Shown here piece after piece: positions 1-42,847 of a stretch of DNA of 64,000 nt. The DNA is from Bdellovibrionales bacterium (GTDB lineage Bacteria > Bdellovibrionota > Bdellovibrionia > Bdellovibrionales > JAKFYE01), in the NCBI GenBank assembly GCA_965206675.1, contig CBDBKL010000006.1, positions 75,834 to 139,833 on the forward strand, read 5' to 3'. How positions within the stretch are numbered: position 1 is the stretch's first letter; the number at the start of each line of letters is the position of its first letter. The position numbers were made by a program, and so were the translations under genes. The notes beneath the pieces are model-generated. The model was given only the letters and a program-made list of their open reading frames with translations, was not told the DNA's origin and searched no databases.

Positions 1-326
1 CTGTAAGTCCCATGACTCCCAATACACAACGACTAACATCTTTAACATATACTGGGTTTAGGCTCCTCCCCGTTCGCTCGCCGCTACTGGGGGAATCTCA
101 ATTGATTTCTTTTCCTAAGGGTACTTAGATGTTTCAGTTCCCCTCGTTCGCTTTATACAGCTATGAATTCACTGTACAATACCCGCAAGCGGGTGGGTTT
201 CCCCATTCGGACATTTCCGGATCAAAAAATATGTGCTTCTCCCCGAAACTTATCGCAGCTTATCACGTCCTTCATCGCTTCTTAGTGCCAAAGCATCCAT
301 CGTAAGCTCTTAGTAGCTTAAAACCG
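1..326 (-). rRNA. rrl: 23S rRNA, 5' portion only (gene runs off the window start)
   Basis: Reverse complement carries conserved 23S 5'-domain strings (GATGGATGCTTTGGCACTAAG, GCGATGAAGGACGTG, GGGGAACTGAAACATCTAAGTAC, CCCAGTAGCGGCGAGCGAACGGGGAG). Same strand and order as 16S and tRNA-Ile. The 5' end near 326 was placed by eye. Confidence 0.9.
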
Positions 327-418
327 CTTAAATCCTCACTAAAAATAAAATTACTAAATCAATTCTATTCAATTTTCAAAGAGCCAAGAGAGAAACATTA
401 AAGCCTATAACTAAAAGT

Positions 419-495
<77 letters not shown>

Positions 496-639
496 TCGCT
501 CTCTCAAAACTAAATAGCTAGAAATGTTTTTGGGTAATGACCTAGGAAAACTATAAAGACAACTTTGTCCTTAGACATCATCGTTATCTTTATAAAATCT
601 CGTCACGAATAAACACCTTCATGACAAAATACAATCCTT

Positions 640-2151
<1,512 letters not shown>

Positions 2152-2621
2152 AAACGAAGAATTCAAAATTCTTTAAAATTCAAAAATAAAACCGAAAAAA
2201 TTTCGGTGGACCCAAAAACATTCTGTTTCTAGCTATTCAGTTTTCAAAGAGCGAAAAAGGCCCAACTGTGCGGCCCCTTTTTACAAAGCCGATACACTCT
2301 AACACTGACCCTAACTGGGTTAAATCAGAAGCTTTCACAGCAAGCACTTTACACGAAACCCATTAGCTACAAGAACATAGCCTCACAGACCTCCACGCAG
2401 TTCTAAGGAAAAAGGGTAGAGTTGTCCAACAAAATCCTCCATGCCGCACCTACCCAAAATGTCCTGATTTAGAAAACATGGAAACTTTGCTCCGATATCA
2501 ACGGTTCACAATAATTAAGCAAGAAAATTTTATTTTGCAGCATACGTTGAATATCTCCTCGGCGCATATTAGGAAGTAGTGGAAGGCATCCAGAAAAAGG
2601 TTAAAGGGGGGAGACCTTTAC

Positions 2622-25249: not shown

Positions 25250-28134
25250 ACCAAGTTCTAACTTCTAAAATATCATCTTCATCCAAACCATAAAGCTCAT
25301 TCACAAAAGGCTCTACTAATTCATCTACCTTTCCAGTAAGCCCCCTTTCTCCATAATGTTTTTCCTTTATTTGAAGAACAGAATCACAAATCATTTCTGC
25401 TTTTCGTAATTGTGCTTTTGTAGGAATCACTATAGGCAAATAGTGGAAGTAGTTTGTCATAAAATCCACTGTGTTTTGGACAAAGTTTTTTGCAAAATAT
25501 CTCATTAAATGAGAGCATAAAATAATTAACAAATATTTATTTAATCTTTGATCAAATGGTAAAATTAAATTTTCCTTTACCCCAAAAACACCACCAAAAC
25601 TCAATCTATAAGTTGGAGCGTATAAACCTGTGACCGTACAAGCAATTCCTGTTTGGAAATAATATTTCGCATTTTGAAAGCGAGGTTTTTTAGGGGTACC
25701 AGGAGGCCATTTATTTCTTTTTTTCAAAGTTCGAACAGATTTTTCCGACCAATCAATCCAATAATCTATAGGTTTCCAAAAATTGTTTAACTCCCCACCT
25801 CTTGTATCTTGCTCCCCTCCCTTATCAAAAGGAATAAAATATCGGTCTGAATCAAAATCTAATACTTTTATTCCATTGTTCTTTTCATCTTCCGTTAAAG
25901 AAGATAGCATAGAGGAAGAAATAATATTTTTCTCTGATACATCTAAAATGTTTTTCCTTCTAGGGTTAGCTTGAATCCCTTTTGATTTTCTTAAAAAGTT
26001 TTTATCGTCTGCTGTAGCTAACCCTTGCATAACAGAAGCCAATTGCCAAAGTTTTGCAACAAGAATACCCCCCCCCTTTTTTTTTCTTCTTACCAATAAG
26101 CAATCAATTTTTTTCTCTAACAATTTTGTTTTTGAACTTAAAATATTTTTTCCCATAGGAAGATCAGAACAAAACAAAGCTAATGAAGCATTTCCACAAA
26201 GAATAGGGTGAGTACAGTCTTGTTGATTTAAAAGACTCCTACTTGGAAATTCCCCTTTGAGTTTTTCTCTTTTTATACGTGGATTTTTTAATCTTAAATA
26301 AGAAAGCGCATAAGGAATTTGATAAGAATATAACTTACTCTTTTCGATTTTATTATGCTCTTTTTGTAAATAAGATAGCGCGAATTCATACTCTTTATCT
26401 CTAGGATGAATAGGCCATGCATCTGTAAATCTATAATAAGACGATTCCCTTTCTTTTTCTGCAACAGGTGTTTTTTTTAATAGAAAATATACAAGGAAAA
26501 ACGTCTCTCCCTAGGAAGGCATTTCTATGTAATTGAAATATATTTTGAATCTTTGATCTCTTAAAAATTTCTTTTCTTAATTCTTCATTTATTTTAGTCA
26601 TTAAAAAAGTATTACTAAGAATAAAGAACAGATTTCCACCCTCTTTTAAAATATTTATGCTTTGAAGTATGAAATAACTATAAGAGTCCTTACCTCCTAA
26701 ATTATATTGATTTTTAATCGCCTCAGTGACTTTAACACCATATGGTGGGTTTCCAATTATTAAATCGGGAATAAATCCTTCAATTTGAGAAAATAACCCA
26801 CTATCTAAAAAATCCCTGGAGTTAACAATTTTACCAAAATCAAATTTCCCTTTAGGAGCAATAGCATTCCATACGCCCGGTGTTGAATATAGTTCCAAAA
26901 ACATTCCAAGTTGTGTTGTTTGAACAGCAAAAGGATCAATATCTATTGCTTGTATATGAGACATTGTACTTTTGTGAGCTTCAATGACTTTATTTGGTCC
27001 TCCGGACTTCCCTAGATAAGCATTTTTCACCCTCTCATATACTTCACGAACAAAATGCCCCGAACCACAAGCCGGTTCCATAATTTTTTTATTTTTCCAA
27101 GTGCCTAAAGTATTTTCAGCACTATTGACCATTGCTTTAACAATTTCAGGGGGAGTATAGACATTTCCAAGTGATTTAACTTGAAGATCAAGTTCTTCCG
27201 ATTTAACTAACCCATCCCAAATATCTCCTATCGGATTGCCGCGCCCTTCAAATACGAGAGCCTGAGTGATAGAGGCACTGCTCATAATTTCAGAAACAAA
27301 CTTTTCACACCAGTCAGAAAGTTCTAAAGCATCATAAGGATCAGCTTTTAAGATTCCAGGAAAATTCTTGGCCCATTTCTTAATCTCTTGTTTAAATTTC
27401 TCTGGAAAAGTAACGTCCTTTCTATCAGTAAAAATTTTTATGAATAATATTTTTAAAGTTAGAGAAAGAGCTACACTCGATAAAATACTTTTGATGACTA
27501 CATCCTCTTTAACCTTTTCTAGAGATGCATCAACAAAAGATTTTCTTGTATGCAAAATTTTATCAAAATCCTTTTTTCGTTTACCCAGTTTTGCACTCGC
27601 AAATTTATATTCTATTGGAAAGTATTGGTCAGTTAGATCTTCAAATATAACCTCTCTAACTTTTTTGAGAAGTTTAATTGTTTGATTTAAGGTGAGCTGC
27701 TCAGTTAATAGCCCTGACCCTTTTTGCTGCAAAGCTTTCTCCCAAGAAATAGGGTCACAGGGGGCATAAGAAAACTCTTCACTCTTATCTTTTAATCGTT
27801 TATACCACTTATGTTCGACTCCATTTGACAATAGTGCATAAGGGGGAGGAATAGGGAAAGAATCGCCTAAACAATAATCAAATAACTGATCGACATCTCT
27901 CTTAACGAGTTTATGTTTTTCCCTTTTAGCCTCTACTAGAAGAATAATGCCTGTTTGATTTTTAAAACCTCCATCATAAGGCCCCTTCTGCTGACCTCTT
28001 TTCCTTACGTAGGTTTGTTCATCAAAAAATCTACTTCTTCTTCTTGGATATCCTAATTCATCCTCAAGATAGGGATATATCAATTTGCTGAAAGTATTAA
28101 ATTCATTCCATCCTTGTTTTGACATCTGAGCCAC
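25197..28134 (-). pseudogene. Type IIG restriction-modification enzyme (nuclease + N6-adenine methyltransferase + specificity region), split by a frameshift at a homopolymer
   Basis: The upstream ORF (26431..28134) has the nuclease-like D..LLVEAKRE, the SAM block IMEPACGSGHF and the catalytic LIIGNPPYG. The downstream ORF (25197..26177) is in the adjacent frame, which is open from about 26470. The frame switch coincides with T8 at 26471..26478; removing one base fuses everything into about 980 codons. Confidence 0.8.
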
Positions 28135-29152: not shown

Positions 29153-31003
29153 TTAAATGATTTTTAAAATTATGGGGCCGTAGCTCAGCTGGGAGAGCGT
29201 TACACTGGCAGTGTAAAGGTCGACGGTTCGATCCCGTTCGGCTCCACCATTCCCAACGCTGGACGAACCAGCGACCATTAAAAAGTCATCGTGGCCAAGA
29301 ACAGAAGTCCCCAGCCCGATAGCCTTTTTTATGCCTGAAAACTTATCCTCACGAGATGCATTTTTGCGAAATGATGCCTCAAGTAGCCTTCCGAGTTTAC
29401 GAAAAGGGAGGACAACCCCTTGCTTGTCAGAGGCCTTTCCAAAGGCCCTAGCTTGGCGGTATTCATTGGCCCAGAAATCAATTTGGATAACATTCTCTGG
29501 GTGAACACGAATAGATTTGATTACCTCTTGCACAATGGCCCGTTTCTTGGAAACTTTTGCCTTGCGAAAACTATCCTGACGGAGCTTTCTTATTCCATCC
29601 AAAATTAAATTGGGATCAATTGCCCTACCTTCAACTTCAAATAAAGATTTTTCCTCCAGCTTTAACTTTTCGTTTTCCAGTTTTTCAAGCCTCTCTTCAT
29701 TTTCCTTGATACGCACAAGTAAGGCCTCAAGTCCCTTTGCTACTTGGTTATCGGCCACAAGATTAACTAGTTTTTCATTTTCCAACTTTAGCTTTTCAAT
29801 CTCTCTTTTCTTTTTTCCAAGAAGTGCTTTTGAAACTTTCGGCCGGCTTTTTATCTGCTCAGACAATGCCTTAACAAATTGCTCACTCATCGCCTCGTTA
29901 TTAATCAGAGAAAACAACTGCTTTCTAATCAACTTCTCAAATGCCTCTGCGCTATACCTTTGAATTTTGCAGTTTGTTTTTTTTGTATGCCCGTAATAAA
30001 AATACTTCCCGTTTCGTCCCGTTCCCGACTGTCCACAAAGTGGCCCACCACATTCATCACAGATAGTAATGCCGGAGTAGGAAAAATCAAACGTGGTTGC
30101 ATATTTAACTTTTTTATTCAAATTGAGTTTTTCTTGAACCCTAGAAAAAGTATCCTCGTCAATAATAGCATCCCAACTGGCCTTAACAATGGCGTATTTA
30201 TCTTCTTGCTTTAAAGATTCTTGATTAAGCTCTTTATTTATCTTATTGACTTCACGCTTTCCAATGTATGCATGATTAGTTAAAGTTCTCCAAATTGAAT
30301 CGGTTGTAAATTTCTTGCCACCGCATTTATTTCCTGTTCTGCTAACCCAAGATTTGTTTCTACATTCACGACTTTCAAGATCACGAACAATTTCAGCAAG
30401 GCTTTTTCCAGATAGATATGAATCAAAAATACCTTTCACTATCTCGGCCTCTTTTGGGTTTACAAGGAGCTTTCCCGATTGGGAGGAATCCTTGTCATAA
30501 CCAAGAAAAGGGGTTCCGCCATTTGAAAGACCACGAAGTGCCCGCGCATGAAAATTACTTTTAATTCTTTCGGCCGTTAGCTCACGTTCAAATTGGGCCA
30601 ATGCCATAATAATTGTCATAAAGACTTTTCCAGCAGGGCTTGTCGTATCAAAGTCGTATTGAAGGCAAATGAAATCGCAGCCGCAATCTTCAAGCTCTTT
30701 AATGAAATTTAAAAAGTCAGTGACAGAACGGCTTAAGCGAGAAAGCTCTGTTACTAAAATTGTATTAATGCGTTTACTTTTCACATCGTAAAGCATTCTC
30801 TGAAACTCTGGGCGGTCAGTGTTTTTCCCCGAGTAGGCCTCATCTTTATAGATATTAACGAGTTTTCCCCATTTGCCATTTTCATAGGTGTTTTTTTCAT
30901 TAACTTTCATCTTAAGTCTTTGAATTTGAGAAGTAATCGACCCTTCCTTATTTCTTGCCTGTTCGTCCGTACTAACTCTACAGTAAATTGCTACTTTTCT
31001 CAT
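29153..31003 (-). CDS. Large serine recombinase (integrase); 3' end of the ORF runs antisense through tRNA-Ala
   Basis: 616 aa. Resolvase catalytic domain VAIYCRVSTDEQ...VTELSRLSRS, a recombinase domain, the zinc ribbon CDECGGPLCGQ...YYGHTKKTNC, then a coiled coil. The last ~32 codons (..NGGAERDRTVDLYTASVTLSQLSYGPIILKII) are the antisense of the tRNA and its upstream flank. Confidence 0.9.
   Translation of the reverse strand: MRKVAIYCRVSTDEQARNKEGSITSQIQRLKMKVNEKNTYENGKWGKLVNIYKDEAYSGKNTDRPEFQRMLYDVKSKRINTILVTELSRLSRSVTDFLNFIKELEDCGCDFICLQYDFDTTSPAGKVFMTIIMALAQFERELTAERIKSNFHARALRGLSNGGTPFLGYDKDSSQSGKLLVNPKEAEIVKGIFDSYLSGKSLAEIVRDLESRECRNKSWVSRTGNKCGGKKFTTDSIWRTLTNHAYIGKREVNKINKELNQESLKQEDKYAIVKASWDAIIDEDTFSRVQEKLNLNKKVKYATTFDFSYSGITICDECGGPLCGQSGTGRNGKYFYYGHTKKTNCKIQRYSAEAFEKLIRKQLFSLINNEAMSEQFVKALSEQIKSRPKVSKALLGKKKREIEKLKLENEKLVNLVADNQVAKGLEALLVRIKENEERLEKLENEKLKLEEKSLFEVEGRAIDPNLILDGIRKLRQDSFRKAKVSKKRAIVQEVIKSIRVHPENVIQIDFWANEYRQARAFGKASDKQGVVLPFRKLGRLLEASFRKNASREDKFSGIKKAIGLGTSVLGHDDFLMVAGSSSVGNGGAERDRTVDLYTASVTLSQLSYGPIILKII
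29174..29249 (+). tRNA. tRNA-Ala (anticodon GGC), CCA encoded
   Basis: GGGGCCGTAGCTCAGCTGGGAGAGCGTTACACTGGCAGTGTAAAGGTCGACGGTTCGATCCCGTTCGGCTCCACCA. Acceptor GGGGCCG/CGGCTCC with the G3:U70 alanine identity pair. Anticodon stem TTACA/TGTAA with loop CTGGCAG. Confidence 0.93.
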
Positions 31004-31007
31004 GAAG

Positions 31008-31265
31008 CTATTTTCTCCTCCTATTTTCTAATTTTTTCACAACTAATTTAATCTTCAGTCCAATGCCGTTAGCGATTCTTACTAATTGATTAAGAGAAAT
31101 TGCCTTTTCAGTACCTCGAAGTGTTTTGTTTACATTTCGTCGATCCATTCCGACAATCCTTCCAACGTCACCTTGAGATAACCCCTGCCTTTTCATCTCT
31201 TTTAAAATTGCATCCGTCAAATCCTCTTTAAGATCGGGGACTTGGGTATTACTTAAATCAACCAT
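31008..31265 (-). CDS. XRE-family helix-turn-helix protein
   Basis: 85 aa. HTH LSQGDVGRIVGMDRRNVNKTLRG. Stop codon is 2 nt before the recombinase start, so likely co-transcribed. Confidence 0.8.
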   Translation of the reverse strand: MVDLSNTQVPDLKEDLTDAILKEMKRQGLSQGDVGRIVGMDRRNVNKTLRGTEKAISLNQLVRIANGIGLKIKLVVKKLENRRRK

Positions 31266-31682: not shown

Positions 31683-34145
31683 TCAGGCGACCAATTTTTT
31701 TAAGTCTTCAAGAATATATTTTTCTGGATTTAAAGATGTTGTTTCTTGATCTCTAAACATTCTCACTATTTCATTCAGTTTAACCCTATTCATAAACCCA
31801 AGGTCACAAAGTTTTACAAAATCATCTTTTGAAATCCCTGTCATAACCTCAAAAAATTCTGGCGATTTTGTTTGAATAACGTGATCTATATTGTATTCTC
31901 TCTCATAAGTCATATAAATAAAATCTGACATACAAATGGCAAGTCTTTTTATTTGAGTTGCATACCATTTTTTACGAGTTTGGCGTTCTTTATCCCTGTC
32001 TTTCTCTGAAAAATCATCAATTATTTTTTCTTTTTCCTCGATTGGAAGATTTGGATCAAGTATCGCCTCATCTAAAATAGAAGCATCTGCCCCTATTTGA
32101 GCAAGTTCTTCTACATTGATATTTCCCACATCTTGAGTTCTATATCCCTTGACTTTTTTCAGTATCTCTAGAAGATCAGGGTTATTTTCAAGAAGCCTTA
32201 AGCAACTATAATTTACCAAAGTATTTGACGTAATCTTTCTGGCAAGAGCGATTTTTGAACCTTCATGATTGAGGGCTTCAAAAATATCTTTTGATGTTGT
32301 TGGAGTGCTAACCAAGCTACCTTCATAAAATCTTTTAATATCTAAGGTGTCACATAGTCCTGTGGTGATAATCTCTAAGTTATCCTTGCTAGAATCCAAT
32401 TTTCCTTCTGAGCTTTCTTTTTGAGCAATTTGATCTGCAATATTCAGTGCACAATCATAGGTAACTTTTAAAGAGCGAGTAATGGCAAAATCAAAAACCC
32501 ACGCCTTTCTTTTTAAAATCTTTTTTGTTTTCTTGTCAACCCAAGAAGACTGAACACGAAAGATTGCTTGAAAATAAGATTCTGCTGACTGAACATCTGT
32601 CAGTATAAGAATGCTATCCCACTCTTTTATTGTTACTCCAGTTAAAAACCTCCCACAAGTAAAAGTAATAGTTCCAAGCTTGGAAGAGTCCTTGTTGATT
32701 TTCTCGATAGCTTCTTGAACCTTGCCCTTGTCCCTTGCGATTATATTCTCATCATTATCATTGCTCTTATTATCACTTCCTGAAGCGTTAATGAGAGTAA
32801 ATTTTGAAAAATAAGGATGCACTTCAAGTTTTTTAATCAGCGCAGTTATTGAATCAACTCGATTTACCCACCACACACTATGCCTTTTAGCAGGGCACCC
32901 TAAATTTTCACCAAGCTTGCCATATACGCTTATTGACCTTGCGCCATGCCCTGACTTATGAAGGCCTTCAATGAAGTGATCTACGGCATCTTCATGTACA
33001 AAATTTCCATTTTGTGTTTCAAGCAATGTGTTAAGAGAAAAATCTATATCATCGGTTTTAAATTTATCTTTTTGCTCCTTAATATCATCTTCAGTAATTT
33101 CTATAGTAGAGATATTTATATCAGGAAGTTGCCTGTACACACCTTCTTTTTCTTCGTTGGGATCTAGCTCTGCTTCTCTTTTTTTTCTTTTTTGCTCATC
33201 AAGGTAGCTGTAGGTATAAACTTGTTGAGGGCAAAAATCATCTTGCTCAATTAATCTGAAAGGGGTCCCCGATAGTCCTAATCTATTCTTATACTTAAGT
33301 TTATCTAATATATTTTTTGCCCTTTCAGTTCGACTTCCATAATGAACCTCATCGAAAATTATTAAGTCCCAAGATATGTTTGGAATTTTATGAAGCCTTT
33401 CCTTGGTATTACCGTTTTTGTCTATCCATAAATCTTGAAGGGAAACACACATAACGATTGGCCCATTGATCTGGGGAAAATTTCCATTATTGGTTAAAGT
33501 TGGATCTAACGGTCTATCACTTTTCTTTTTGGCTCTGACTCCTGTCCAACTATCAAACGCAATGTGATTATTTACTGTATCAATCCATTCACCGATAACA
33601 TCTGGCTTATATGTGACTACTAATGTATATTGACAGCTTAGGGCCTTAGCCAAGTGGATGCTAGTAAAACATTTTCCAAATCTCATTTTCGCATTGATGA
33701 GAAATCTGTTTGAATGAGTCGCTGAGCCAATAACTTCTTTAGGGTATTCTTTCAGAAACCACTTCTTCGCTTTTTCGACAGCCATCTGCTGCTCCTCTCT
33801 AGGAGAAAAATTATCAGATCTATTGCTGCCATATTTGATTTTATTGTATGCTTTTCTAACCTCACTAAATGGGTCATTTTTGTTACCTGTTTTAAACCAC
33901 TCTTTACCCGGCCCATCTTTAATCCATTTGCAACCATTTAAAATCATTTGGTTGTGTATATCTTTATCCGTTTTTCCTTCAGGAAGTTCACCTATTAGCA
34001 AAAACTTAGGTCGCTCTGGATTACTTGTTCCGAACTGCTCTTCAACACGCTCCTTGGATCGACCAATTTTGGAATGACCAACCTTGACCATACCTTGTTG
34101 CAGATACGTTTCCGTGGAGTAGGCATATAGCTCTTTCTTTGCCAT
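31683..34145 (-). CDS. GIY-YIG-like (T5orf172-type) domain fused to an SF2 (Res/SNF2-like) helicase
   Basis: 820 aa. N-terminus LYAYSTETYLQQGMVKVGHSKIGRSKERVEEQ...KEWF resembles the T5orf172/GIY-YIG-superfamily pattern. Helicase motifs: Q-like SPREEQQ, motif I MRFGKCFT, motif II IIFDEVHYG, motif III LGLSGTPF, motif VI-like QAIFRVQS. The start codon abuts the stop of the methyltransferase gene. Confidence 0.75.
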   Translation of the reverse strand: MAKKELYAYSTETYLQQGMVKVGHSKIGRSKERVEEQFGTSNPERPKFLLIGELPEGKTDKDIHNQMILNGCKWIKDGPGKEWFKTGNKNDPFSEVRKAYNKIKYGSNRSDNFSPREEQQMAVEKAKKWFLKEYPKEVIGSATHSNRFLINAKMRFGKCFTSIHLAKALSCQYTLVVTYKPDVIGEWIDTVNNHIAFDSWTGVRAKKKSDRPLDPTLTNNGNFPQINGPIVMCVSLQDLWIDKNGNTKERLHKIPNISWDLIIFDEVHYGSRTERAKNILDKLKYKNRLGLSGTPFRLIEQDDFCPQQVYTYSYLDEQKRKKREAELDPNEEKEGVYRQLPDINISTIEITEDDIKEQKDKFKTDDIDFSLNTLLETQNGNFVHEDAVDHFIEGLHKSGHGARSISVYGKLGENLGCPAKRHSVWWVNRVDSITALIKKLEVHPYFSKFTLINASGSDNKSNDNDENIIARDKGKVQEAIEKINKDSSKLGTITFTCGRFLTGVTIKEWDSILILTDVQSAESYFQAIFRVQSSWVDKKTKKILKRKAWVFDFAITRSLKVTYDCALNIADQIAQKESSEGKLDSSKDNLEIITTGLCDTLDIKRFYEGSLVSTPTTSKDIFEALNHEGSKIALARKITSNTLVNYSCLRLLENNPDLLEILKKVKGYRTQDVGNINVEELAQIGADASILDEAILDPNLPIEEKEKIIDDFSEKDRDKERQTRKKWYATQIKRLAICMSDFIYMTYEREYNIDHVIQTKSPEFFEVMTGISKDDFVKLCDLGFMNRVKLNEIVRMFRDQETTSLNPEKYILEDLKKLVA

Positions 34146-35594
34146 CTAAGACCATTCTCCAATTTTTTTATCCAGATGAAGCATTTCTTCTCTTGTTAAA
34201 TCAAAATATCTCGCAAGGCTTTTGTCATCAATTTCGGATAGATCTTCCATGAGAGGTACCCATGACCACCTATCTTTTGGAATATCTTGGGTTAGCTTTC
34301 TTAACCCTAATAAGTATCGGCAAAAATTTGTCTGAAGATATCTGATTAAACTTAAAGCTTCATTTTTATTTTCAAACGAACCTATTACATTATATGTTTC
34401 GGTAGAAATAGCCCCTTTTTCAATTAAGAAAATCTGATGTTTTGGAAGTGTACACCTTCTTGCGCCCGTTGCATACGCTCTGGGAATAGCCACTTTCCAC
34501 TCATCAATACTTTCTGAATGTCTAATTACATTACTTCTCTTGATCCATTTTATTTTTCTGCCTTTTGTGTAACACTTTACCGAATCACTTTTATCTTTTT
34601 CATATTCACTACTTGTAGAAAAGTAGTTAGTTGGAAGTCCAAAAGGTTTTCTTGACCAAGCAATATCTGATACAAAACACCCTTGGTGCTTGTTTAAAAC
34701 CTTAGTCACAATAGAACTAGCCTTGGGGTCATCTGGTATAATATCGAACCTAGATAAATCGACTTCGATTTCTTCACCTGAGTCGATAAACTTAGTCATT
34801 CCCAAATAATCCTTGTCAATATTCAAAAAACAAACCCCACCTTGTACATGAACAGTTGGGAACACATCCTCAGAGCGTCCAAAATACGACAAGTTTTTCA
34901 CATGTTGTGATTCCATTATTCTGCGCCTGAATTTCGCCAAGCCCTTACCAGAAGAAAACCAACGAGCTGGAATGACAAGCACAAATTCATTTATTGATTT
35001 GTTTTCAAAGAGATGTTCAACGAAGATGTTATAAATTGGCTTAGCACTGGCTTTTGCACCTCCATCAGCTTCTTGATAGGGCGGGTTCCCAACAACTATT
35101 ATTCTTTTATTTCCTGATTTATCTTTTATATATTCAACCATATTTTCAAACTCCTTTTTAAAAATGTTTTCATCTAATTTTCCATCTATCTCTGAAAGGT
35201 AATTTCCGTTTTTGATAATATGGTTATATTTTTCATCATGAGATTTTGTATTTCCAAGAAAAGTTCTCAAACTAAGCCTGTGGTGCCTTTCATCAGGGGC
35301 AAGGGCAAAATATCTGTTTGATTCAAAAATTTCCTTATGAATATCCTTTACATCCATTAGTTTCGATTGTTTCTTAAGCACTGAAACACAACTCATATAT
35401 GAACAGGCAAACAATAGTTCCCCTGCTTTACAGAAGGGGTCAAAAAAAACTACATTTTTATCTAAAAAAACATCAGAAGACAACAAAGACACCATCTCAA
35501 TTGCTTTATCCATTCTAAGTATGGGTTGATCCCGACCAATTGTATCCCCGAGTACGTCAACAACATGGGCACTTGGTTTCAGTAGGGCACTCAT
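34146..35594 (-). CDS. N6-adenine DNA methyltransferase (Eco57I-like/gamma-type) with C-terminal specificity region
   Basis: 482 aa. Motif I FFDPFCKAGELL. Catalytic motif IV VVGNPPYQEADGG, followed by AKPIYNIFVE. Confidence 0.85.
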   Translation of the reverse strand: MSALLKPSAHVVDVLGDTIGRDQPILRMDKAIEMVSLLSSDVFLDKNVVFFDPFCKAGELLFACSYMSCVSVLKKQSKLMDVKDIHKEIFESNRYFALAPDERHHRLSLRTFLGNTKSHDEKYNHIIKNGNYLSEIDGKLDENIFKKEFENMVEYIKDKSGNKRIIVVGNPPYQEADGGAKASAKPIYNIFVEHLFENKSINEFVLVIPARWFSSGKGLAKFRRRIMESQHVKNLSYFGRSEDVFPTVHVQGGVCFLNIDKDYLGMTKFIDSGEEIEVDLSRFDIIPDDPKASSIVTKVLNKHQGCFVSDIAWSRKPFGLPTNYFSTSSEYEKDKSDSVKCYTKGRKIKWIKRSNVIRHSESIDEWKVAIPRAYATGARRCTLPKHQIFLIEKGAISTETYNVIGSFENKNEALSLIRYLQTNFCRYLLGLRKLTQDIPKDRWSWVPLMEDLSEIDDKSLARYFDLTREEMLHLDKKIGEWS

Positions 35595-35596
35595 TT

Positions 35597-36373
35597 TTAC
35601 ACACCTTCTTCCAAGGGCTGATATTCAGGTGCAAAATCTTTACTTTTGAATAAAAATTTAGCAAAAGAAAATTCATTGCTAATCAATTTTTTCTTACCAA
35701 TTAAACTCGTTATAAAAGCAGAGGCTTTTTCAAAGATGATTGGAATAGAGTTTTCTGCCTCACACTTTTCAAAGAAATTTGCCCAAGTTAATCTGAACTC
35801 CATTTTTTGATGGCCTCTTTTGTTAAACCATTTTTTTCCTGGCTTTGTTTTCGAGGCTTTTTCTTTGGCCACAACCTCAGAGCTTAGTGATGAGAGGGTT
35901 TCATTTTCATGGATTTGCCACTTAATCGCAGACAAAATATGTGCAAAGAAATCTTCGTAGTCAGATATTAAATCCAATGAATTTTCATAACCAATTTTAG
36001 ATTTTATAAAACTCAAGGTATAAACAAGAACTCTAGTTCGGCAATTATTTACATTCTTTGAGTCAATATCAATTGCCCACAAAGTATTTAAAGAGTTAGC
36101 TACTGCATAGAAGGCTGCATTTTTAGAGTATTGTGGCAATGCTTTTCTATATAAGGAATCTAATCTCCGACGATAAATTGCAAGAACAATATTTCCATGG
36201 CCACAACATGGCTCAAAGAATATATTATTTTCATTTGACCAGAAACCGCGCCTATTTTTACTTAATAAGTCAAGCATATCTTCAACATATTTCTCAGGAG
36301 TAAAGACTTCTCCCAAATCCCTTATGCGATCCCTGCTTCTGTGAGGCAAAGCGCCTATTTCTATAATGTTCAT
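35597..36373 (-). CDS. Methyltransferase-like protein lacking the catalytic (D/N/S)PP(Y/F) motif
   Basis: 258 aa. Motif X GEVFTPEKYVEDMLDLL, motif I FFEPCCGHGNIVLAIY and AIDID are present. I found no NPPY-type tetrapeptide anywhere in the ORF. First gene of the tightly packed three-gene operon. Confidence 0.65.
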   Translation of the reverse strand: MNIIEIGALPHRSRDRIRDLGEVFTPEKYVEDMLDLLSKNRRGFWSNENNIFFEPCCGHGNIVLAIYRRRLDSLYRKALPQYSKNAAFYAVANSLNTLWAIDIDSKNVNNCRTRVLVYTLSFIKSKIGYENSLDLISDYEDFFAHILSAIKWQIHENETLSSLSSEVVAKEKASKTKPGKKWFNKRGHQKMEFRLTWANFFEKCEAENSIPIIFEKASAFITSLIGKKKLISNEFSFAKFLFKSKDFAPEYQPLEEGV

Positions 36374-36583: not shown

Positions 36584-37024
36584 TTATTCATGGGAACTCG
36601 CTTTTCCCTGCACGATCTTTTTATATTTATAATTTAGGTTGAGTTTCTGAATAGTCTCTTTAAGGTCAACCCCAGATTTCATGGCCTCTCTGAGAAATTT
36701 TTTTTCATTAAAGAACTCTCGCTCAAGGGCTTTCATGTCTTTTTTAAACTGTCCCTTCTTTAAATAACGCTCAATCACGATAGAGGCCAGGGAAGAAGGA
36801 CTTAGGGTTATCGCCTGGCACTCGCTCTTGAGAGTATTCATCATTTCATAAAGGGCCTTTGACCCTTTGGCGTTTAGCCCCAGTCTAATAGTTTTGTTAT
36901 CTTGCATTTCTGTCTCCCCCAGTTGACTTGCTCCATTGAATATTATCTGAAATATTCCATATTCTATGCCTTTCAATGACTTTGTTTCCTTTTCTATGGG
37001 TTGGAATAAGTTCTTCTGACTCAA
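36584..37024 (-). CDS. Hypothetical protein
   Basis: 146-aa ORF with helical, lysine-rich composition. No family recognised. Starts 42 nt from the IS3 left end. Confidence 0.5.
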   Translation of the reverse strand: MSQKNLFQPIEKETKSLKGIEYGIFQIIFNGASQLGETEMQDNKTIRLGLNAKGSKALYEMMNTLKSECQAITLSPSSLASIVIERYLKKGQFKKDMKALEREFFNEKKFLREAMKSGVDLKETIQKLNLNYKYKKIVQGKASSHE

Positions 37025-37095
37025 CGGAAAAATGACCTGGTCGGCTTAATCCTTACCAACTAAAATGTTGGTTGCAGCGCAAAAAAGGAGGCCAT

Positions 37096-37374
37096 ATGCC
37101 CAGAAAACGCTTCTCCACAGAGGAGATCATCAAGCACATCAGAACCGCCGAAATTGAGCAGGCAAGAGGTGTTTCTCAAGACATGATTGCCAAGAGGATT
37201 GGGGTCAGTTCTGTAACCCTATCCCGGTGGAAAAAAGAGTTTGGTGGCCTAAGAATTGACCAGGCCAAAAGGCTCAAACAGTTGGAAAAAGAAAATGCTC
37301 AACTCAAACGACTGCTCGCCGATTCTGAGCTCGATAAGTTTATTCTCAAGGAAACCCTTGGGGGAAACCTCTAG
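37096..37374 (+). CDS. IS3-family transposase OrfA (HTH)
   Basis: MPRKRFSTEEIIKHIR...VSSVTLSRWKKEF plus a leucine-zipper-like tail. The ATG at 37096 is preceded by AAGGAGG; the track start at 37072 is probably too early. Confidence 0.88.
   Translation: MPRKRFSTEEIIKHIRTAEIEQARGVSQDMIAKRIGVSSVTLSRWKKEFGGLRIDQAKRLKQLEKENAQLKRLLADSELDKFILKETLGGNL
37362..37368 (+). promoter_or_regulatory. Programmed -1 ribosomal frameshift heptamer G GGA AAC
   Basis: In the orfA frame the codons are ctt ggG GGA AAC ctc tag, so X XXY YYZ is in the correct phase. The -1 frame is open from 37338 and reads ..WGKPLGPARRKALASHMIGQFNISERRAC into OrfB. A TCTAG-GCCCGG-CTAGA palindrome follows immediately. Confidence 0.65.
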
Positions 37375-37406
37375 GCCCGGCTAGAAGAAAGGCTCTGGCC
37401 AGTCAT

Positions 37407-38219
37407 ATGATTGGCCAGTTCAATATATCTGAACGTCGGGCTTGTAAACTCGCCAATATATCCAGAGCTTCTTTCCGCTATACCCCCATAAAAAACCCCT
37501 TTGATGACAAACTCAGAGCAAGAATTGTTGAGTTGGCATCTCTCTTCGGCCGTTATGGTTATAAAAAGATTACCCACATGCTTAACTCCGAGGGGATGCT
37601 CGTGGGTAAAGACAAGGTATTAAGAATATGGAGAGAAGAGGGGCTAAAGGTTCCTCAGAAACAACCCAATCGTGGACGTCTTTGGTTGGCCAATGGTTCG
37701 TGCATTCGACTCCGTCCAGAGTACCCCAACCATGTCTGGTCATATGACTTCGTTAACCACCAAACTTATGACGGAAAAAAGTTAAAAATCTTGAATATCA
37801 TTGATGAATACACGAGAGAGTGCTTAGCATCTCACGTTGGGAGAAGAATTACCTCAATGAACGTGGTTTATATTCTTGCGGACCTTTTTTTAACGAAAGG
37901 GGTGCCAAAGCATATTAGATCAGACAACGGGCCAGAGTTTATTGCGAAGAATCTCCTTTCTTGGTTTAAACTTCTTGATATTGCTCCTCTGTTTATCCAT
38001 CCCGGCAGTCCCTGGGAAAATGGTTACTGCGAATCCTTTAATGGAAAAATGAGGTATGAGCTTTTAGATGGAGAAGTTTTTTATAGTTTGACAGAGGCAA
38101 AGGTCATCATAGCAAGTTGGGTTCGGCAATATAATACGATCCGTCCCCATTCGTCACTCGGGGGAAGCCCCCCGGCTCCGGAGGCAGATGCTCCTCCGCT
38201 AGAGCTATTTGCAGTTTAA
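37407..38219 (+). CDS. IS3-family transposase OrfB (DDE/rve integrase core), probably made as an OrfAB fusion
   Basis: 270 aa with NHVWSYDF, HIRSDNGPEF, PWENGYCESFNG and IRPHSSLGG. Confidence 0.9.
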   Translation: MIGQFNISERRACKLANISRASFRYTPIKNPFDDKLRARIVELASLFGRYGYKKITHMLNSEGMLVGKDKVLRIWREEGLKVPQKQPNRGRLWLANGSCIRLRPEYPNHVWSYDFVNHQTYDGKKLKILNIIDEYTRECLASHVGRRITSMNVVYILADLFLTKGVPKHIRSDNGPEFIAKNLLSWFKLLDIAPLFIHPGSPWENGYCESFNGKMRYELLDGEVFYSLTEAKVIIASWVRQYNTIRPHSSLGGSPPAPEADAPPLELFAV

Positions 38220-39126: not shown

Positions 39127-40374
39127 TTGAATAGTGGTACTATAAATCCATTTAAGCCAGGAAATCCTGTTCCCCCTGGAGTCTTTGCAGGGAGGGGGAA
39201 GGAGCTAGGGCAAATCAGTAAATGCATTATGCAAACCTCTCATTTCTCACCTCAAAATATTTTAATTATGGGAGAAAGAGGAATTGGTAAAACCTCTATG
39301 GCATATGTCGTAAAGGCCATGGCCGAAAAGAATCTTCCTCTTATACATGAAGCGCAAAATAATTTGATCACGGCCTATCTCAGTGTGAAAAAGAATACGC
39401 CCTCCCCGGTGGTCATTTCTCAAATAGTGGAAGAGCTAGAAACTCAACTTGAGCCGTTCCGCACACTGCTTGGTGCGGCCTCTGACTCCATTAAGAATTT
39501 TGTTAAAAATTTTCAATCAATTTCTGTTCAGGGTCTTGAGATCAAGACAAGCGAGAAAAAGACGATACCAATCGAGGAAATTTATATCGAAGCCAAAAAG
39601 ACTTTAAGAAAATGTGCTAACGCTTGTAAAAATACGGAAAATATAGAGGATTCTAGGTCCATTTGTATTATTGTCGATGAACTTGATAGGATGGCGGACT
39701 TTGAAAATTTCTCTTCATTTTGGAAAGGGCTACAAGAAACTCTTGGAGCAGATGATTGTAATAGCTTAATGCTCGTTTTTGTTGGGATGCCAGAAATAAA
39801 GGATAAGTTAGCTGCAGACCATGAATCAATTATTCGAACCTTTACCCCAATATACCTTGATAGGATGGAGAGACAAGACGCAGAAGAAGTTATAAAAAAA
39901 GCTTTAGATGGAAGTGGAAAGACAATATCGAATGAAGCAGTTGAAAAGATATTAAACTATTCAGAATATTTCCCTCATTTAATCCAAGAATTAGGTTACT
40001 CAGCTTTTGAAGTATCTGAACGTAATGAGATTACTGGAAAAGACGTTGATTTAGGGATTCATGGTAATGAGTCTTACCCTGGATCAATAGCAAGGCTTGG
40101 GGAACTCTTTTTTTCCCGAATGTATGATGAGATCAAAAAGAGCAAAAATTTCAAAGAAATTCTCAAAATAATTGCAACGCTATCTGGCATTAAGCAAAAG
40201 TGGGTGTCCAGGCAAGCAGTACTAAAAGAGTTCTCTGGAAAGAGTACAAACTTAGATTCGTCGATAAGAGTGCTAAAAGAAAAGAAACTAATTATTACAA
40301 ACCCAGAGATGCAAGGACAATATAGGATTTCTTCTAAAATGTTTCAAGCATACATAGAAAAGATTTTTATATGA
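39127..40374 (+). CDS. P-loop NTPase (Orc1/Cdc6-like or STAND-like AAA ATPase) with C-terminal winged-helix-like region
   Basis: 415 aa. TTG start preceded by GGAGG. Lead-in FAGRGKELGQI, Walker A ILIMGERGIGKTSMAY, Walker B ICIIVDELDR. Confidence 0.8.
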   Translation: MNSGTINPFKPGNPVPPGVFAGRGKELGQISKCIMQTSHFSPQNILIMGERGIGKTSMAYVVKAMAEKNLPLIHEAQNNLITAYLSVKKNTPSPVVISQIVEELETQLEPFRTLLGAASDSIKNFVKNFQSISVQGLEIKTSEKKTIPIEEIYIEAKKTLRKCANACKNTENIEDSRSICIIVDELDRMADFENFSSFWKGLQETLGADDCNSLMLVFVGMPEIKDKLAADHESIIRTFTPIYLDRMERQDAEEVIKKALDGSGKTISNEAVEKILNYSEYFPHLIQELGYSAFEVSERNEITGKDVDLGIHGNESYPGSIARLGELFFSRMYDEIKKSKNFKEILKIIATLSGIKQKWVSRQAVLKEFSGKSTNLDSSIRVLKEKKLIITNPEMQGQYRISSKMFQAYIEKIFI

Positions 40375-40378
40375 AAAT

Positions 40379-42847
40379 ATGATTGGTGAAGAAAAGCACA
40401 AAGTCTCTGAAATTGAGGAAATAGAAAAAAGACTTGAGCAATTAAGTAGGGAAAGATCAGAACTCCTCAAGAAATTATCTAGTCTAAGATTAAAAAATAA
40501 TACGAAAAATATTCCGTTATTAGGGAGAATATTAGATATTTCTTCACCGAATACACCAGAAGAGAAAATAAACCTTTTTAAAAAACTATTTTGTTGTCGT
40601 GAAGATATTTTTCCAAGATTTTGGGAGAATGAAAAAACTGGAAAGAGAGGATATTCGCCTGTTTGTTCTAATGAATGGGTAAGACCTATTTGTAGAAAGC
40701 CAGAGGTTAAATGTAGTGATTGCCAGCACCAAAGCTTTCTACCCTTAGATGAAATATCCATCAAATCGCATTTGCAAGGATTTCATATTGCTGGAACTTA
40801 TGCCATAAGAGAGAATAATACTTGTATTTTTCTTGCGGCAGATTTTGATAGGGCCTCTTGGAAAGAAGATTCCTTAGCATATAAAAAAGCAGCCAGAGAG
40901 CTTGGAGTTGAAGTTTGTATTGAACGCTCAAAGTCAGGTAATGGGGCACATGCTTGGATATTTTTTCAGGAACCAATTTGGGCCAGAAAGGCAAGACAGG
41001 TTGGAACGTTGATTCTTGTTCGGGCGACTTCAATCAGCCAGAAAATTAAACTTAACAGTCACGATCGTTTTTTTCCTAGCCAAGATACAGTTCCTAAAGG
41101 TGGATTTGGAAATCTTATAGCACTACCTTTGCAGAGAGTAGCAAGAGGACAGGGCAATAGTGTTTTTGTTGATGATGAATTTAGGCCTGTTGAAGATCAA
41201 TGGAAATTCCTAAGCGGTATTCGTCGATTATCTCAGGACGACATAGATCTTTTGCTAAACAAAAATTTATCTCAAAATATGATTTTAAATTTTGATATTG
41301 AAGACTTTGATCTCAGGATAACTGAAAAAGCATTGGATTCGATTTCAAAGAAATTAAAACTAGAAGAATTTTATGAAACGATAAATTTAAGAATTTCAGA
41401 TCAAATTTACATAAATACCGAAAACCTCCCTGATATTTTAGTTGGGGCATTTAGAAGAAAGGCCACATTTGCTAATCCAGAGTTCTTCAAGAAACAAAAA
41501 ATGAGATTTTCAACTTGGGATACACCGAGATTTATTTGCTGCGCAGAAAACTTAGGCAATGAAATGTCAGTTCCAAGAGGAAGTCTTGATGAATGTCTAG
41601 CGATTGCAAGTGAAGTTGGGGCAAACGTTAATATTTTTGATGAAAGACCTAATCATAAAAAGATCAAAGTAAAATTCACTGGAGAATTAAGACAAGATCA
41701 AAAGAAGGCCATCAGAAAAATTATCAATTACGATACAGGGGTTCTCGTAGCTCCTCCAGGAGTTGGGAAAACGGTTATGGGATGCCACCTTATAGCTAAA
41801 AGGAAAGTTCCAACTTTGGTATTAGTTCATCGTAGGCCTCTTATGGATCAATGGGTAGAGAGGCTTAAAGAATTTTTAGATATTGCCCCCAAGGAAATAG
41901 GTTCATTTGGAGGCTCAAAGAAAAGGCCAAAGGGAAAGATAGATGTTGCTATGTTGCAAACACTTTCTAAACTAGAAGATTGTGAAGAAATGTTGTCTGA
42001 ATATGGACAGATAATTGTCGATGAATGCCATCATATTCCGGCCCAATCCTTTGAGCAAGTTATGAAAAAGATTCCGGCCAAATACTTTGTTGGGTTGACA
42101 GCAACTCCGTATCGAAAAGATGGCCATCAGGCCATTATTCATATGCAGTTAGGCCCTACCCGACACGAAATGGAAGATTTCGGAGCCAATGCATTAGAAA
42201 AGAAAGTATTTATTAAAGAAACCAATCTTCAATTTCCAGAAAATTTAAAAAGACTCGAAATTCATGAAATCTGGGACATCCTAATTGGCCATGATGGCAG
42301 AACTTCTATGATCGTTCAAGATATTAAAAGCGAGTTGGAAGCAAATCGTTTCCCATTAATCATATCAGAGAGAAAAGAACACTTGGCCAATATTTCAACT
42401 AAAATAAAGACCTCTTCCATCAAGGCCAAAGAATTTATACTGATTGGAGATATGGGCAAGAAAAAGAGAAAGGAAATTTTGGATCAAATCCATAACTGTG
42501 TTCAAAATAAAGAACAATTTTACATTTTATCTACAGGCTCTTTTATTGGGGAGGGTTTTGATCTTCCTATTTTAGATTCCTTAATTTTAACAATGCCAGT
42601 GTCATTTAAAGGTCGATTAGTTCAATATGCGGGGCGAATACATAGGATATTTGAGAAAAAAGAGGAAGTGAGAATATTTGATTACTTAGACCCTCACAGC
42701 AATCTAACCATTAAGATGCTAAAGAAAAGGATTCCTGTTTATAAAAAGATGGGTTATAAAATTATCTCAGACCATGGGAAAAAAGTGGATCAGATTTTAT
42801 ATCAAACAAGATTGTTCTCTGAGTTTGAAGGCAATATGACCCATTAG
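40379..42847 (+). CDS. Archaeo-eukaryotic primase (PrimPol)-like domain fused to an SF2 helicase
   Basis: 822 aa. N-terminal coiled coil, then a Cys cluster (CSNEWVRPICRKPEVKCSDC). AEP motifs FLAADFD (DxD), SKSGNGAHAWIFF (sGxGxH) and GFGNLIALPL. Helicase motifs LVAPPGVGKT, IIVDECHHI, GLTATPYR and VQYAGRIHR. Confidence 0.8.
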   Translation: MIGEEKHKVSEIEEIEKRLEQLSRERSELLKKLSSLRLKNNTKNIPLLGRILDISSPNTPEEKINLFKKLFCCREDIFPRFWENEKTGKRGYSPVCSNEWVRPICRKPEVKCSDCQHQSFLPLDEISIKSHLQGFHIAGTYAIRENNTCIFLAADFDRASWKEDSLAYKKAARELGVEVCIERSKSGNGAHAWIFFQEPIWARKARQVGTLILVRATSISQKIKLNSHDRFFPSQDTVPKGGFGNLIALPLQRVARGQGNSVFVDDEFRPVEDQWKFLSGIRRLSQDDIDLLLNKNLSQNMILNFDIEDFDLRITEKALDSISKKLKLEEFYETINLRISDQIYINTENLPDILVGAFRRKATFANPEFFKKQKMRFSTWDTPRFICCAENLGNEMSVPRGSLDECLAIASEVGANVNIFDERPNHKKIKVKFTGELRQDQKKAIRKIINYDTGVLVAPPGVGKTVMGCHLIAKRKVPTLVLVHRRPLMDQWVERLKEFLDIAPKEIGSFGGSKKRPKGKIDVAMLQTLSKLEDCEEMLSEYGQIIVDECHHIPAQSFEQVMKKIPAKYFVGLTATPYRKDGHQAIIHMQLGPTRHEMEDFGANALEKKVFIKETNLQFPENLKRLEIHEIWDILIGHDGRTSMIVQDIKSELEANRFPLIISERKEHLANISTKIKTSSIKAKEFILIGDMGKKKRKEILDQIHNCVQNKEQFYILSTGSFIGEGFDLPILDSLILTMPVSFKGRLVQYAGRIHRIFEKKEEVRIFDYLDPHSNLTIKMLKKRIPVYKKMGYKIISDHGKKVDQILYQTRLFSEFEGNMTH

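Follow-up and report, generated by a model that had tools for sequence, protein, structure and literature searches.

The DrdVI family comprises split-methylase Type IIG restriction-modification (R-M) systems with a fused translocase and GIY-YIG restriction endonuclease (PMC6430315, PMC4996451, PMC10113651). In Deinococcus wulumuqiensis NEB 479, the system of plasmid pDrdVI is recorded as 'M1-2.DrdVI, GCAGCC, 6mA, IIG', which was confirmed by cloning in E. coli (PMC6430315). Clones carrying both M1 and M2 write N6-methyladenine (m6A) at short asymmetric sites, GCAGCC for DrdVI and GCACY for MaeIV of Methanococcus aeolicus (PMC6430315, PMC10113651). A 2025 EcoSal review of R-M biology contains none of the searched terms pointing to the family, and no papers were found on combinations of Eco57I with ResIII or of T5orf172 with ResIII. 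Here, an operon of three genes is described in a 64,000-nucleotide stretch of a Bdellovibrionales genome (contig CBDBKL010000006.1), called the window below. Genes 1, 2 and 3 encode a half-methylase (M1), an adenine methylase (M2) and a nuclease-motor fusion (R), respectively. The trio is very probably an intact, divergent member of the DrdVI family, catalogued by REBASE as Type IIG 'split methylase'.

Pairwise BLASTP comparison with the open reading frames (ORFs) of pDrdVI relates each gene to its counterpart. Gene 1 is 29% identical to M1.DrdVI (E 1e-15), gene 2 is 32% identical to M2.DrdVI from NPPY onward (E 1e-47), and gene 3 is 27% identical to the DrdVI R protein over its full length (E 6e-75). 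This homology bears out an earlier note on this DNA, made by a model from the letters alone, in which the trio was taken for an R-M-type cassette. The order of the genes is the same in both systems, with a half-methylase followed by an Eco57I-type methylase and by the GIY-YIG and translocase fusion. As in DrdVI, a small M1 devoid of NPPY lies directly upstream of M2 (at a distance of 2 nt in the window), M2 carries its recognition domain at the C-terminus, and R is fused. Both M2 proteins also possess a deviant motif I harboring a lysine, DPCTKSG in DrdVI and DPFCKAG in the window. On the 15.5-kb pDrdVI, the trio is the sole R-M candidate among 12 of the 15 annotated features; a small recombinase is found near the DrdVI genes. 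The PADLOC profile PDLC03626 (REBASE Type IIG) matches DrdVI R, M2.DrdVI, a fused Enterococcus relative described below, and genes 2 and 3 of the window, in the corresponding regions. The earlier note had envisaged a new defence system or a new architecture; the trio instead matches an already described R-M subtype, the very outcome that the note had named as overturning its proposal.

The two systems also display differences. The M1 of the window is 258 residues long instead of 212 in DrdVI and ends with a conserved helical tail, and its motif III reads ENETL instead of HGDAL. The N-terminal regions of the two M2 proteins cannot be aligned by BLAST. Finally, the trio of the window belongs to a clade that shows tight conservation in Bdellovibrionota, Legionella, Nitrosomonas and Methylococcales.

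The three genes are collected in Table 1 with the domains of R. The coordinates of the three minus-strand genes given in the earlier note, and the 2-nt and 0-nt spacers between them, agree exactly with the ORF list and the junction sequences, which read on the coding strand TAA-AA-ATG between genes 1 and 2 and TAG-ATG between genes 2 and 3. Judging from their sequences, the three are genuine genes and not chance ORFs, because each has hundreds to thousands of length-matched relatives and because their co-occurrence and order are fixed. Promoter-like and terminator-like sites are no commoner across the operon than in shuffled sequence.

Table 1. Genes of the operon and domains of the R subunit (positions within the window).
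Feature	Position	Strand	Description
Gene 1 (M1-like subunit)	35597-36373	minus	258 aa ORF; cofactor-binding N-half of gamma-class N6A methyltransferase
Gene 2 (M2-like subunit)	34146-35594	minus	482 aa ORF; gamma-class N6-adenine DNA methyltransferase
Gene 3 (R subunit)	31683-34145	minus	820 aa ORF; nuclease and translocase fusion
Gene 3, N-terminal T5orf172/GIY-YIG-type nuclease domain	33831-34145	minus	aa 1 to ~105
Gene 3, SF2 ATPase/translocase core	32466-33809	minus	aa ~113-560
Gene 3, C-terminal region	31686-32465	minus	aa ~561-820; border with core set by eye from motifs

The R subunit had been read as a T5orf172/GIY-YIG domain followed by a superfamily 2 (SF2) helicase, and the motifs cited for this reading, LYAYS, KVGHSKIGRSKERVEEQ, KEWF, RFGKCFT, DEVH, SGTP and QAIFRVQS, are all present. 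The nuclease part is backed by Pfam in relatives: PF10544 (T5orf172) matches 5 of 14 close relatives (59-81% identity; best E-value 8e-7), it is precomputed on many others, and two remote R relatives exceed the Pfam cut-off. Remote relatives bear the label 'GIY-YIG nuclease family protein' in the Prokaryotic Genome Annotation Pipeline (PGAP). Hidden Markov models, proposed in the earlier note as a check of this N-terminus, therefore return T5orf172 at the level of the family and not for the window sequence alone. Residues Y7, Y9, K21-V22-G23, R33 and E82 are invariant in 14 sequences; the domain keeps the Tyr, Arg and Glu of the GIY...YIG...R...E pattern, and E[WF]F occurs within the first 125 residues in 117 of 120 relatives. 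The motor that follows has as invariants K158 (GKCFT, in the Walker A-like RFGKCFT), DExH, SGTP and Q526/R530, its SF2 motifs being kept in 115-120 of the 120 relatives. Gene 3 matches Pfam ResIII (2.5e-12), SNF2-rel weakly, the DNA helicase family PHROG 16 (3e-14) and, in the helicase region of the profile, PDLC03626 (4e-16). The C-terminal ~260 residues are very conserved, display invariant blocks and align with the C-terminus of DrdVI R; they have no Pfam or PDB sequence match. PDB sequence searches with the three proteins, and with alignments of genes 2 and 3, returned only a marginal match of gene 3 to Type I HsdR/XPB.

The earlier note had described gene 2 as a gamma-type N6-adenine methyltransferase on the basis of DPFCKAG and GNPPYQ. 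Both motifs are present, and in its predicted structure the protein is a complete gamma-class enzyme with a target-recognition domain of its own. Gene 2 matches Pfam Eco57I (1.3e-18) and the PADLOC profiles MTase_II PDLC03375 (7.6e-39) and REase_MTase_IIG PDLC03626 (1.2e-29). From the N-terminus to the C-terminus, it comprises motifs X and I (residues 12-59), NPPY (170-173) and the recognition region. The AlphaFold2 model (predicted local distance difference test score, pLDDT, of 85) exhibits a mixed C-terminal domain after a Rossmann region of seven strands (48-52, 95-99, 127-129, 164-169, which precedes NPPY, 201-209, 232-238 and 254-260). Foldseek matches over its whole length are CamA (1e-15), BrxX/PglX (9e-15), MmeI (1e-10), LlaBIII (4xqk, 7e-10) and TaqI (2e-9). 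NPPY is found in all 120 relatives and the deviant motif I DPFCKAGE (residues 52-59) in 117 of them. In this motif a lysine replaces the usual first glycine, as it does in M2.DrdVI and in a natural M1-M2 fusion, P0437 (NPSTKGG). Residues 1-21 are strongly conserved and predicted to be disordered, as expected of a partner-binding segment.

Gene 1 is the cofactor-binding half of a gamma-class methylase and possesses nothing from motif IV onward. The features reported for it from the letters, namely the presence of GEVFTPEKYVEDML, FFEPCCGHGN and AIDID and the absence of [DNS]PP[YFW], were all recovered. In the alignment, motif X GEVFTP, motif I FFEPxxGHGN (here FFEPCCGHGN) and motif II AIDID are invariant. 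A block IxENETL (here IHENETL), which we take to be a variant motif III from what is known of gamma-class methylases, occupies the place of NIIxGDSL in related small proteins. Motif IV (NPPY) is lacking in gene 1, and [DNS]PP[YFW] occurs in none of its 120 closest relatives. The AlphaFold2 model (pLDDT 83, predicted template modelling score 0.81) displays three short strands between long helices and is closed by the conserved helical tail; its best match among solved structures (Foldseek, PDB) is the CamA adenine methyltransferase, over ~105-115 residues with ~22% identity. Gene 1 belongs to no Pfam family, and NCBIfam yielded no useful family. The PADLOC search advised in the earlier note retrieved genes 2 and 3 with generic Type II methylase and Type IIG profiles; for gene 1 it gave only weak, partial methylase matches, limited to the first ~100 positions of the Type II and Type IIG profiles. 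When the profiles of genes 1 and 2 are compared with each other, the motif X-I region of the former pairs with residues 12-64 of the latter (probability 79%), and the N-halves of these proteins are paralogues.

Could gene 1 be a pseudogene fragment or a degraded remnant, as the earlier note had cautioned? Its relatives are 245-297 residues long (median 263) and share 46 invariant columns. This conserved length, the invariant columns and the universal co-occurrence with genes 2 and 3 exclude a remnant, and gene 1 is kept in the related operons for which upstream DNA is available, as expected of a conserved subunit. M1 probably binds S-adenosylmethionine, because it keeps canonical residues in motifs X, I and II without variation. 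It is not simply the missing half of M2, because M2 has its own complete fold.

The trio is widely conserved. Gene 3 has 3982 relatives, the best 120 of which display 58-100% identity and are nearly all 806-843 residues long, with one fragment of 684 residues; Bacteriovorax, Bdellovibrio, Peredibacter, Legionella and Methylococcaceae are among the taxa represented. The neighbourhoods in Legionella pneumophila, Bacteriovorax stolpii and a Methylococcaceae genome harbor, in this succession, genes of ~260, ~485 (Eco57I) and ~815 aa. Thirty-five loci were retrieved when species-representative genomes were scanned. Relatives of genes 1 and 2 lie directly upstream of gene 3 in every locus with enough upstream DNA, and in a few of these one gene is only partly matched or is interrupted by an insertion; where gene 1 or gene 2 has no match, the locus runs into a contig end. 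The order is the same across Bdellovibrionota, Legionella, Nitrosomonas, Methylococcales and others, and the flanks vary from locus to locus. In two loci from Methylococcales and Gammaproteobacteria genomes (L029 and L040), the gene 2 and gene 3 matches are ~3-4 kb apart and one gene is truncated, which suggests cassette-disrupting insertions.

Clustering of the flanking ORFs at 38 loci yielded no fourth conserved gene: the three trio families are the only ones shared, and the trio is therefore a self-contained cassette found in varied contexts. It is carried by an integrative conjugative element in Legionella, adjoins TIR, SLATT and Schlafen-type genes in B. stolpii, and adjoins GmrSD in a methanotroph. 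R is the best conserved of the three proteins (53-76% identity). M2 displays 52-65% identity across the clade, and M1 and M2 are unusually conserved along their whole length, recognition region included. 

The R-M family looks large. A profile search with gene 1 against 1.84 billion cluster representatives retrieved 2872 proteins at E<=0.001. Of the top 149 matches (the representative of the window family being excluded), 142 are stand-alone proteins of less than 300 residues; only the N-half is matched. The sampled neighbourhoods of remote M1 matches exhibit the M1, M2, R architecture every time, for instance as a 232-aa protein, a 542-aa Eco57I methylase and an 854-aa ResIII protein. The fusion P0437 joins M1-like and M2-like parts in a chain of 786 residues and is followed by a 791-aa T5orf172-ResIII protein. 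A plasmid search retrieved full-length gene 3 relatives at 26-29% identity together with gene 1-like matches on the same plasmids, and in the inspected regions the gene 1-like ORF is located just upstream. On pMchErm55 of Mycobacteroides chelonae, PGAP names the three products 'type III restriction endonuclease subunit M', 'Eco57I ... methylase domain-containing protein' and 'GIY-YIG nuclease family protein'. Enterococcus accounts for 32 of the plasmid records and Lactococcus for 9. In the one Enterococcus record from which a fused architecture was read, E. faecium plasmid NZ_LR135198.1 (L047, 4226-9305), a 248-aa M1-like gene precedes a 1446-aa fusion of a ResIII motor with an Eco57I methylase; the N-terminal ~580 residues of the latter align with gene 3 residues 3-582, T5orf172 region included. 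The DrdVI family probably owes its Type IIG label to this fused motor-methylase form. Two observations argue that M1 would act in the same complex as its partners: M1 and M2 are naturally fused in P0437, and M1 is retained even where R and M2 form one chain.

Single-chain relatives are found in phages. P0402 is a 472-aa methylase (6001-7419 of L048, a 50.7-kb contig of Logan ERR3094284) whose contig is assigned to a phage on account of its genes for a DNA polymerase A, a primase-helicase, a terminase, an amidase and a glycoside hydrolase 19. Its N-half is 48% identical to gene 1 (residues 13-119) and continues directly, from GNPPYQ, into a region with homology to gene 2; a full-length BLAST alignment with gene 2 gives 36% identity. 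Further phages carry single-chain relatives, and small M1-like folds occur in phage proteomes. The P0402 chimera implies that one ordinary-looking methylase can be built from the N-half of an M1-type protein and the catalytic and recognition part of an M2-type one. Such an enzyme may be a phage counter-measure to the R-M family of DrdVI. This is suggestive, as a phage would profit from a methylase of this kind if the host system restricts unmethylated DNA.

Outside its own family, the trio is functionally closest to Type ISP enzymes and to the DnmA-YeeB-YeeC clusters, and it is a member of neither. Type ISP enzymes such as LlaGI and LlaBIII likewise combine a nuclease and an ATP-driven SF2 motor with a gamma-class adenine methylase and its recognition domain, and act on an asymmetric site modified on one strand. 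M2 resembles the methylase-recognition part of LlaBIII in fold (E 7e-10), and the Enterococcus relative joins motor and methylase in a single chain as Type ISP enzymes do. However, the window encodes three polypeptides instead of one, with M1 as an extra subunit, and its nuclease is of the T5orf172/GIY-YIG type and not Mrr/PD-(D/E)xK. The number of genes and the other kind of nuclease rule out Type ISP membership, only the methylase-recognition fold being shared. The DnmA-YeeB-YeeC clusters of B. subtilis and Vibrio crassostreae encode an SF2 helicase and a T5orf172 nuclease together with an adenine methylase whose site is asymmetric, and are located in defence islands (PMC9973331). In these clusters the helicase is not fused to the nuclease, the methylase is long and MmeI-like, and M1 is missing (PMC9973331). 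On the published description of the clusters, the gene 3 fusion and the presence of M1 rule out membership (PMC9973331).

The mechanism proposed for the trio can be outlined by analogy with these systems. M1, M2 and R would form one complex. M2 would use its C-terminal domain to recognise a short asymmetric site and would methylate one adenine in it, so that self DNA would be marked by m6A on one strand, since only one strand of GCAGCC contains an A. Where the DNA is unmarked, the motor of R would hydrolyse ATP and translocate from the site. The GIY-YIG domain would then cut, probably away from the site and probably only upon convergence of two enzymes, a translocation-collision mechanism being assumed here by analogy with Type ISP. 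Type III and Type ISP enzymes, which modify one strand and depend on ATP, spare newly replicated self DNA by needing two converging enzymes. Cleavage and restriction by the trio are predicted from sequence, and m6A writing by M1 and M2 of this member is predicted by analogy. As to M1, it would either complete or activate the cofactor site of M2, or tie methylation and restriction to the supply of the cofactor. A tentative idea, to which we give rather less than even odds, is that M1 is an extra, catalytically dead, cofactor-binding paralogue, retained by all members of the large family, that acts as an S-adenosylmethionine-dependent switch or as an obligate partner that licenses methylation or restriction by M1-M2-R; the partner-free single-chain phage chimeras would then be a possible escape.

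Several points weigh against assigning the trio to a working DrdVI-type R-M system. Identity between the window proteins and those of DrdVI is only 27-32%, and the specificity and details may differ. The complex of M1, M2 and R is one that we infer, and gene 3 of the window has itself no Pfam T5orf172 match at E<=0.1. The fold of M2 is modelled as complete by itself, and the 'split' label leaves the need for M1 unexplained. The literature consulted on the family documents methylation alone, for DrdVI and MaeIV (PMC6430315, PMC10113651), and reports no restriction, cleavage position or ATP dependence. This last point would also fit a cassette that only methylates, an epigenetic or orphan methylase with inert or repurposed partners, as was concluded for DnmA-YeeB-YeeC of B. 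subtilis: this looser analogue gives no phage protection and raises no barrier to transformation (PMC9973331). In the same direction, the Bibersteinia copies are fragmented and inactive (PMC4996451). Conversely, all three genes of the window are intact, with lengths typical of the family, and R keeps its nuclease-type and ATPase residues unchanged from phylum to phylum and is, at 53-76% identity, the best conserved protein. The cassette passes from one phylum to another and is found in defence islands, and the unsplit phage methylases of the family fit selection to evade a working restriction system. A non-restricting cassette is thus unlikely. It is still less probable that methylation is not a self-marker, with, for example, M1 or M2 sensing infection or cofactor depletion and releasing the nuclease-motor in a manner resembling abortive infection. 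M1 as a cofactor-binding module without catalytic residues would suit a sensor, as would the conservation of M1 and M2 that extends to the recognition region (52-65% for M2), unlike the diversifying specificities of R-M systems. Cloned members of the family, however, write defined m6A motifs (PMC6430315, PMC10113651), NPPY is kept in 120 of 120 M2 relatives, and the unsplit phage methylases are sensible as protection from methylation-sensitive cutting.

The reading put forward in the earlier note, by which Mod and Res would form an atypical Type III system after a nuclease-domain swap and the gain of an extra subunit, is very improbable. As in EcoP15I and EcoP1I, a methylase gene precedes a helicase-nuclease gene, the motor is ATP-dependent, and gene 3 matches Pfam ResIII, which is, however, a generic SF2 domain; PGAP also calls one M1 relative a Type III subunit, as cited above. 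In Type III Mod proteins, the catalytic motif precedes the cofactor motif and the recognition domain is central, and in Res an SF2 motor is followed by a C-terminal PD-(D/E)xK nuclease. Neither arrangement is found here. Motifs X and I of M2 precede NPPY and its recognition domain is C-terminal, so that both the methylase class and the domain order differ. The nuclease would have another fold, predicted to be of GIY-YIG type, and stands at the opposite, N-terminal end of R; the C-terminal 260 residues have no family match, although no fold-level search for a cryptic PD-(D/E)xK was made. Type III systems are also devoid of M1. In fold comparison, M2 is a gamma-class methylase that groups with Eco57I, CamA and MmeI, and not a Mod-type enzyme: its neighbours are CamA, PglX, MmeI, LlaBIII, TaqI and Type I HsdM, with no Mod among the 50 matches listed. 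Finally, like Type III systems, the family has asymmetric sites that contain an A on one strand, but REBASE places it under Type IIG (PMC6430315). Membership of the DrdVI family remains the preferred assignment.

The trio is located in a mobile, defence-rich stretch, a defence island, as judged from a TOTE conflict-system pair nearby. The latter is encoded on the plus strand (39127-42847) by a STAND-type NTPase (415 aa) and, after 4 nt, an 822-aa protein in which an AEP-TOTE primase domain (6e-92) is combined with an SF2 helicase. On the other side of the operon, an XRE regulator (31008-31265) lies directly upstream of a 616-aa large serine recombinase ORF (29153-31003), whose 3' end contains, on the opposite plus strand, a tRNA-Ala(GGC) (29174-29249). 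This arrangement looks like that of an island integrated at a tRNA; no second copy of the tRNA-Ala 3' end is present in the window. The adjacency of the regulator and recombinase had been taken in the earlier note as a sign of a mobile cassette. That the cassette occurs in varied contexts is borne out, and the link with the recombinase is weak, a related recombinase lying near the trio in two others of the 38 clustered loci.

Other neighbours can be listed briefly. The ORF that immediately precedes gene 1 (146 aa, TTG start; 36584-37024, minus) has no Pfam match and is not conserved beside the trio at other loci. Two plus-strand ORFs of 100 and 270 aa (37072-38219) resemble, by eye, an IS3-family transposase, with a helix-turn-helix start and an integrase-like core. 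A 567-aa ORF with a GTG start (26431-28134, minus) combines an HSDR_N_2 nuclease-type N-terminus with an Eco57I/N6_Mtase domain (EPACGSGHF, NPPY); it ends just past the methylase domain, without a recognition domain, and may be a truncated Type IIG enzyme. At the edge of the window (1-2152, minus), a partial rRNA operon comprises a complete 16S (642-2152), a tRNA-Ile (419-495) and the first 312 positions of the 23S (1-323).

In practical terms, this part of the window is to be annotated as a DrdVI-like R-M system in a defence island and not as a new system. Standard defence-annotation profiles match the trio only partially. The key question raised is what makes a separate half-methylase the constant companion of a methylase whose own fold is complete. 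To a family catalogued in REBASE without a published mechanism, the trio adds a divergent clade that crosses phyla and whose hosts are predatory Bdellovibrionota, Legionella, nitrifiers and methanotrophs.

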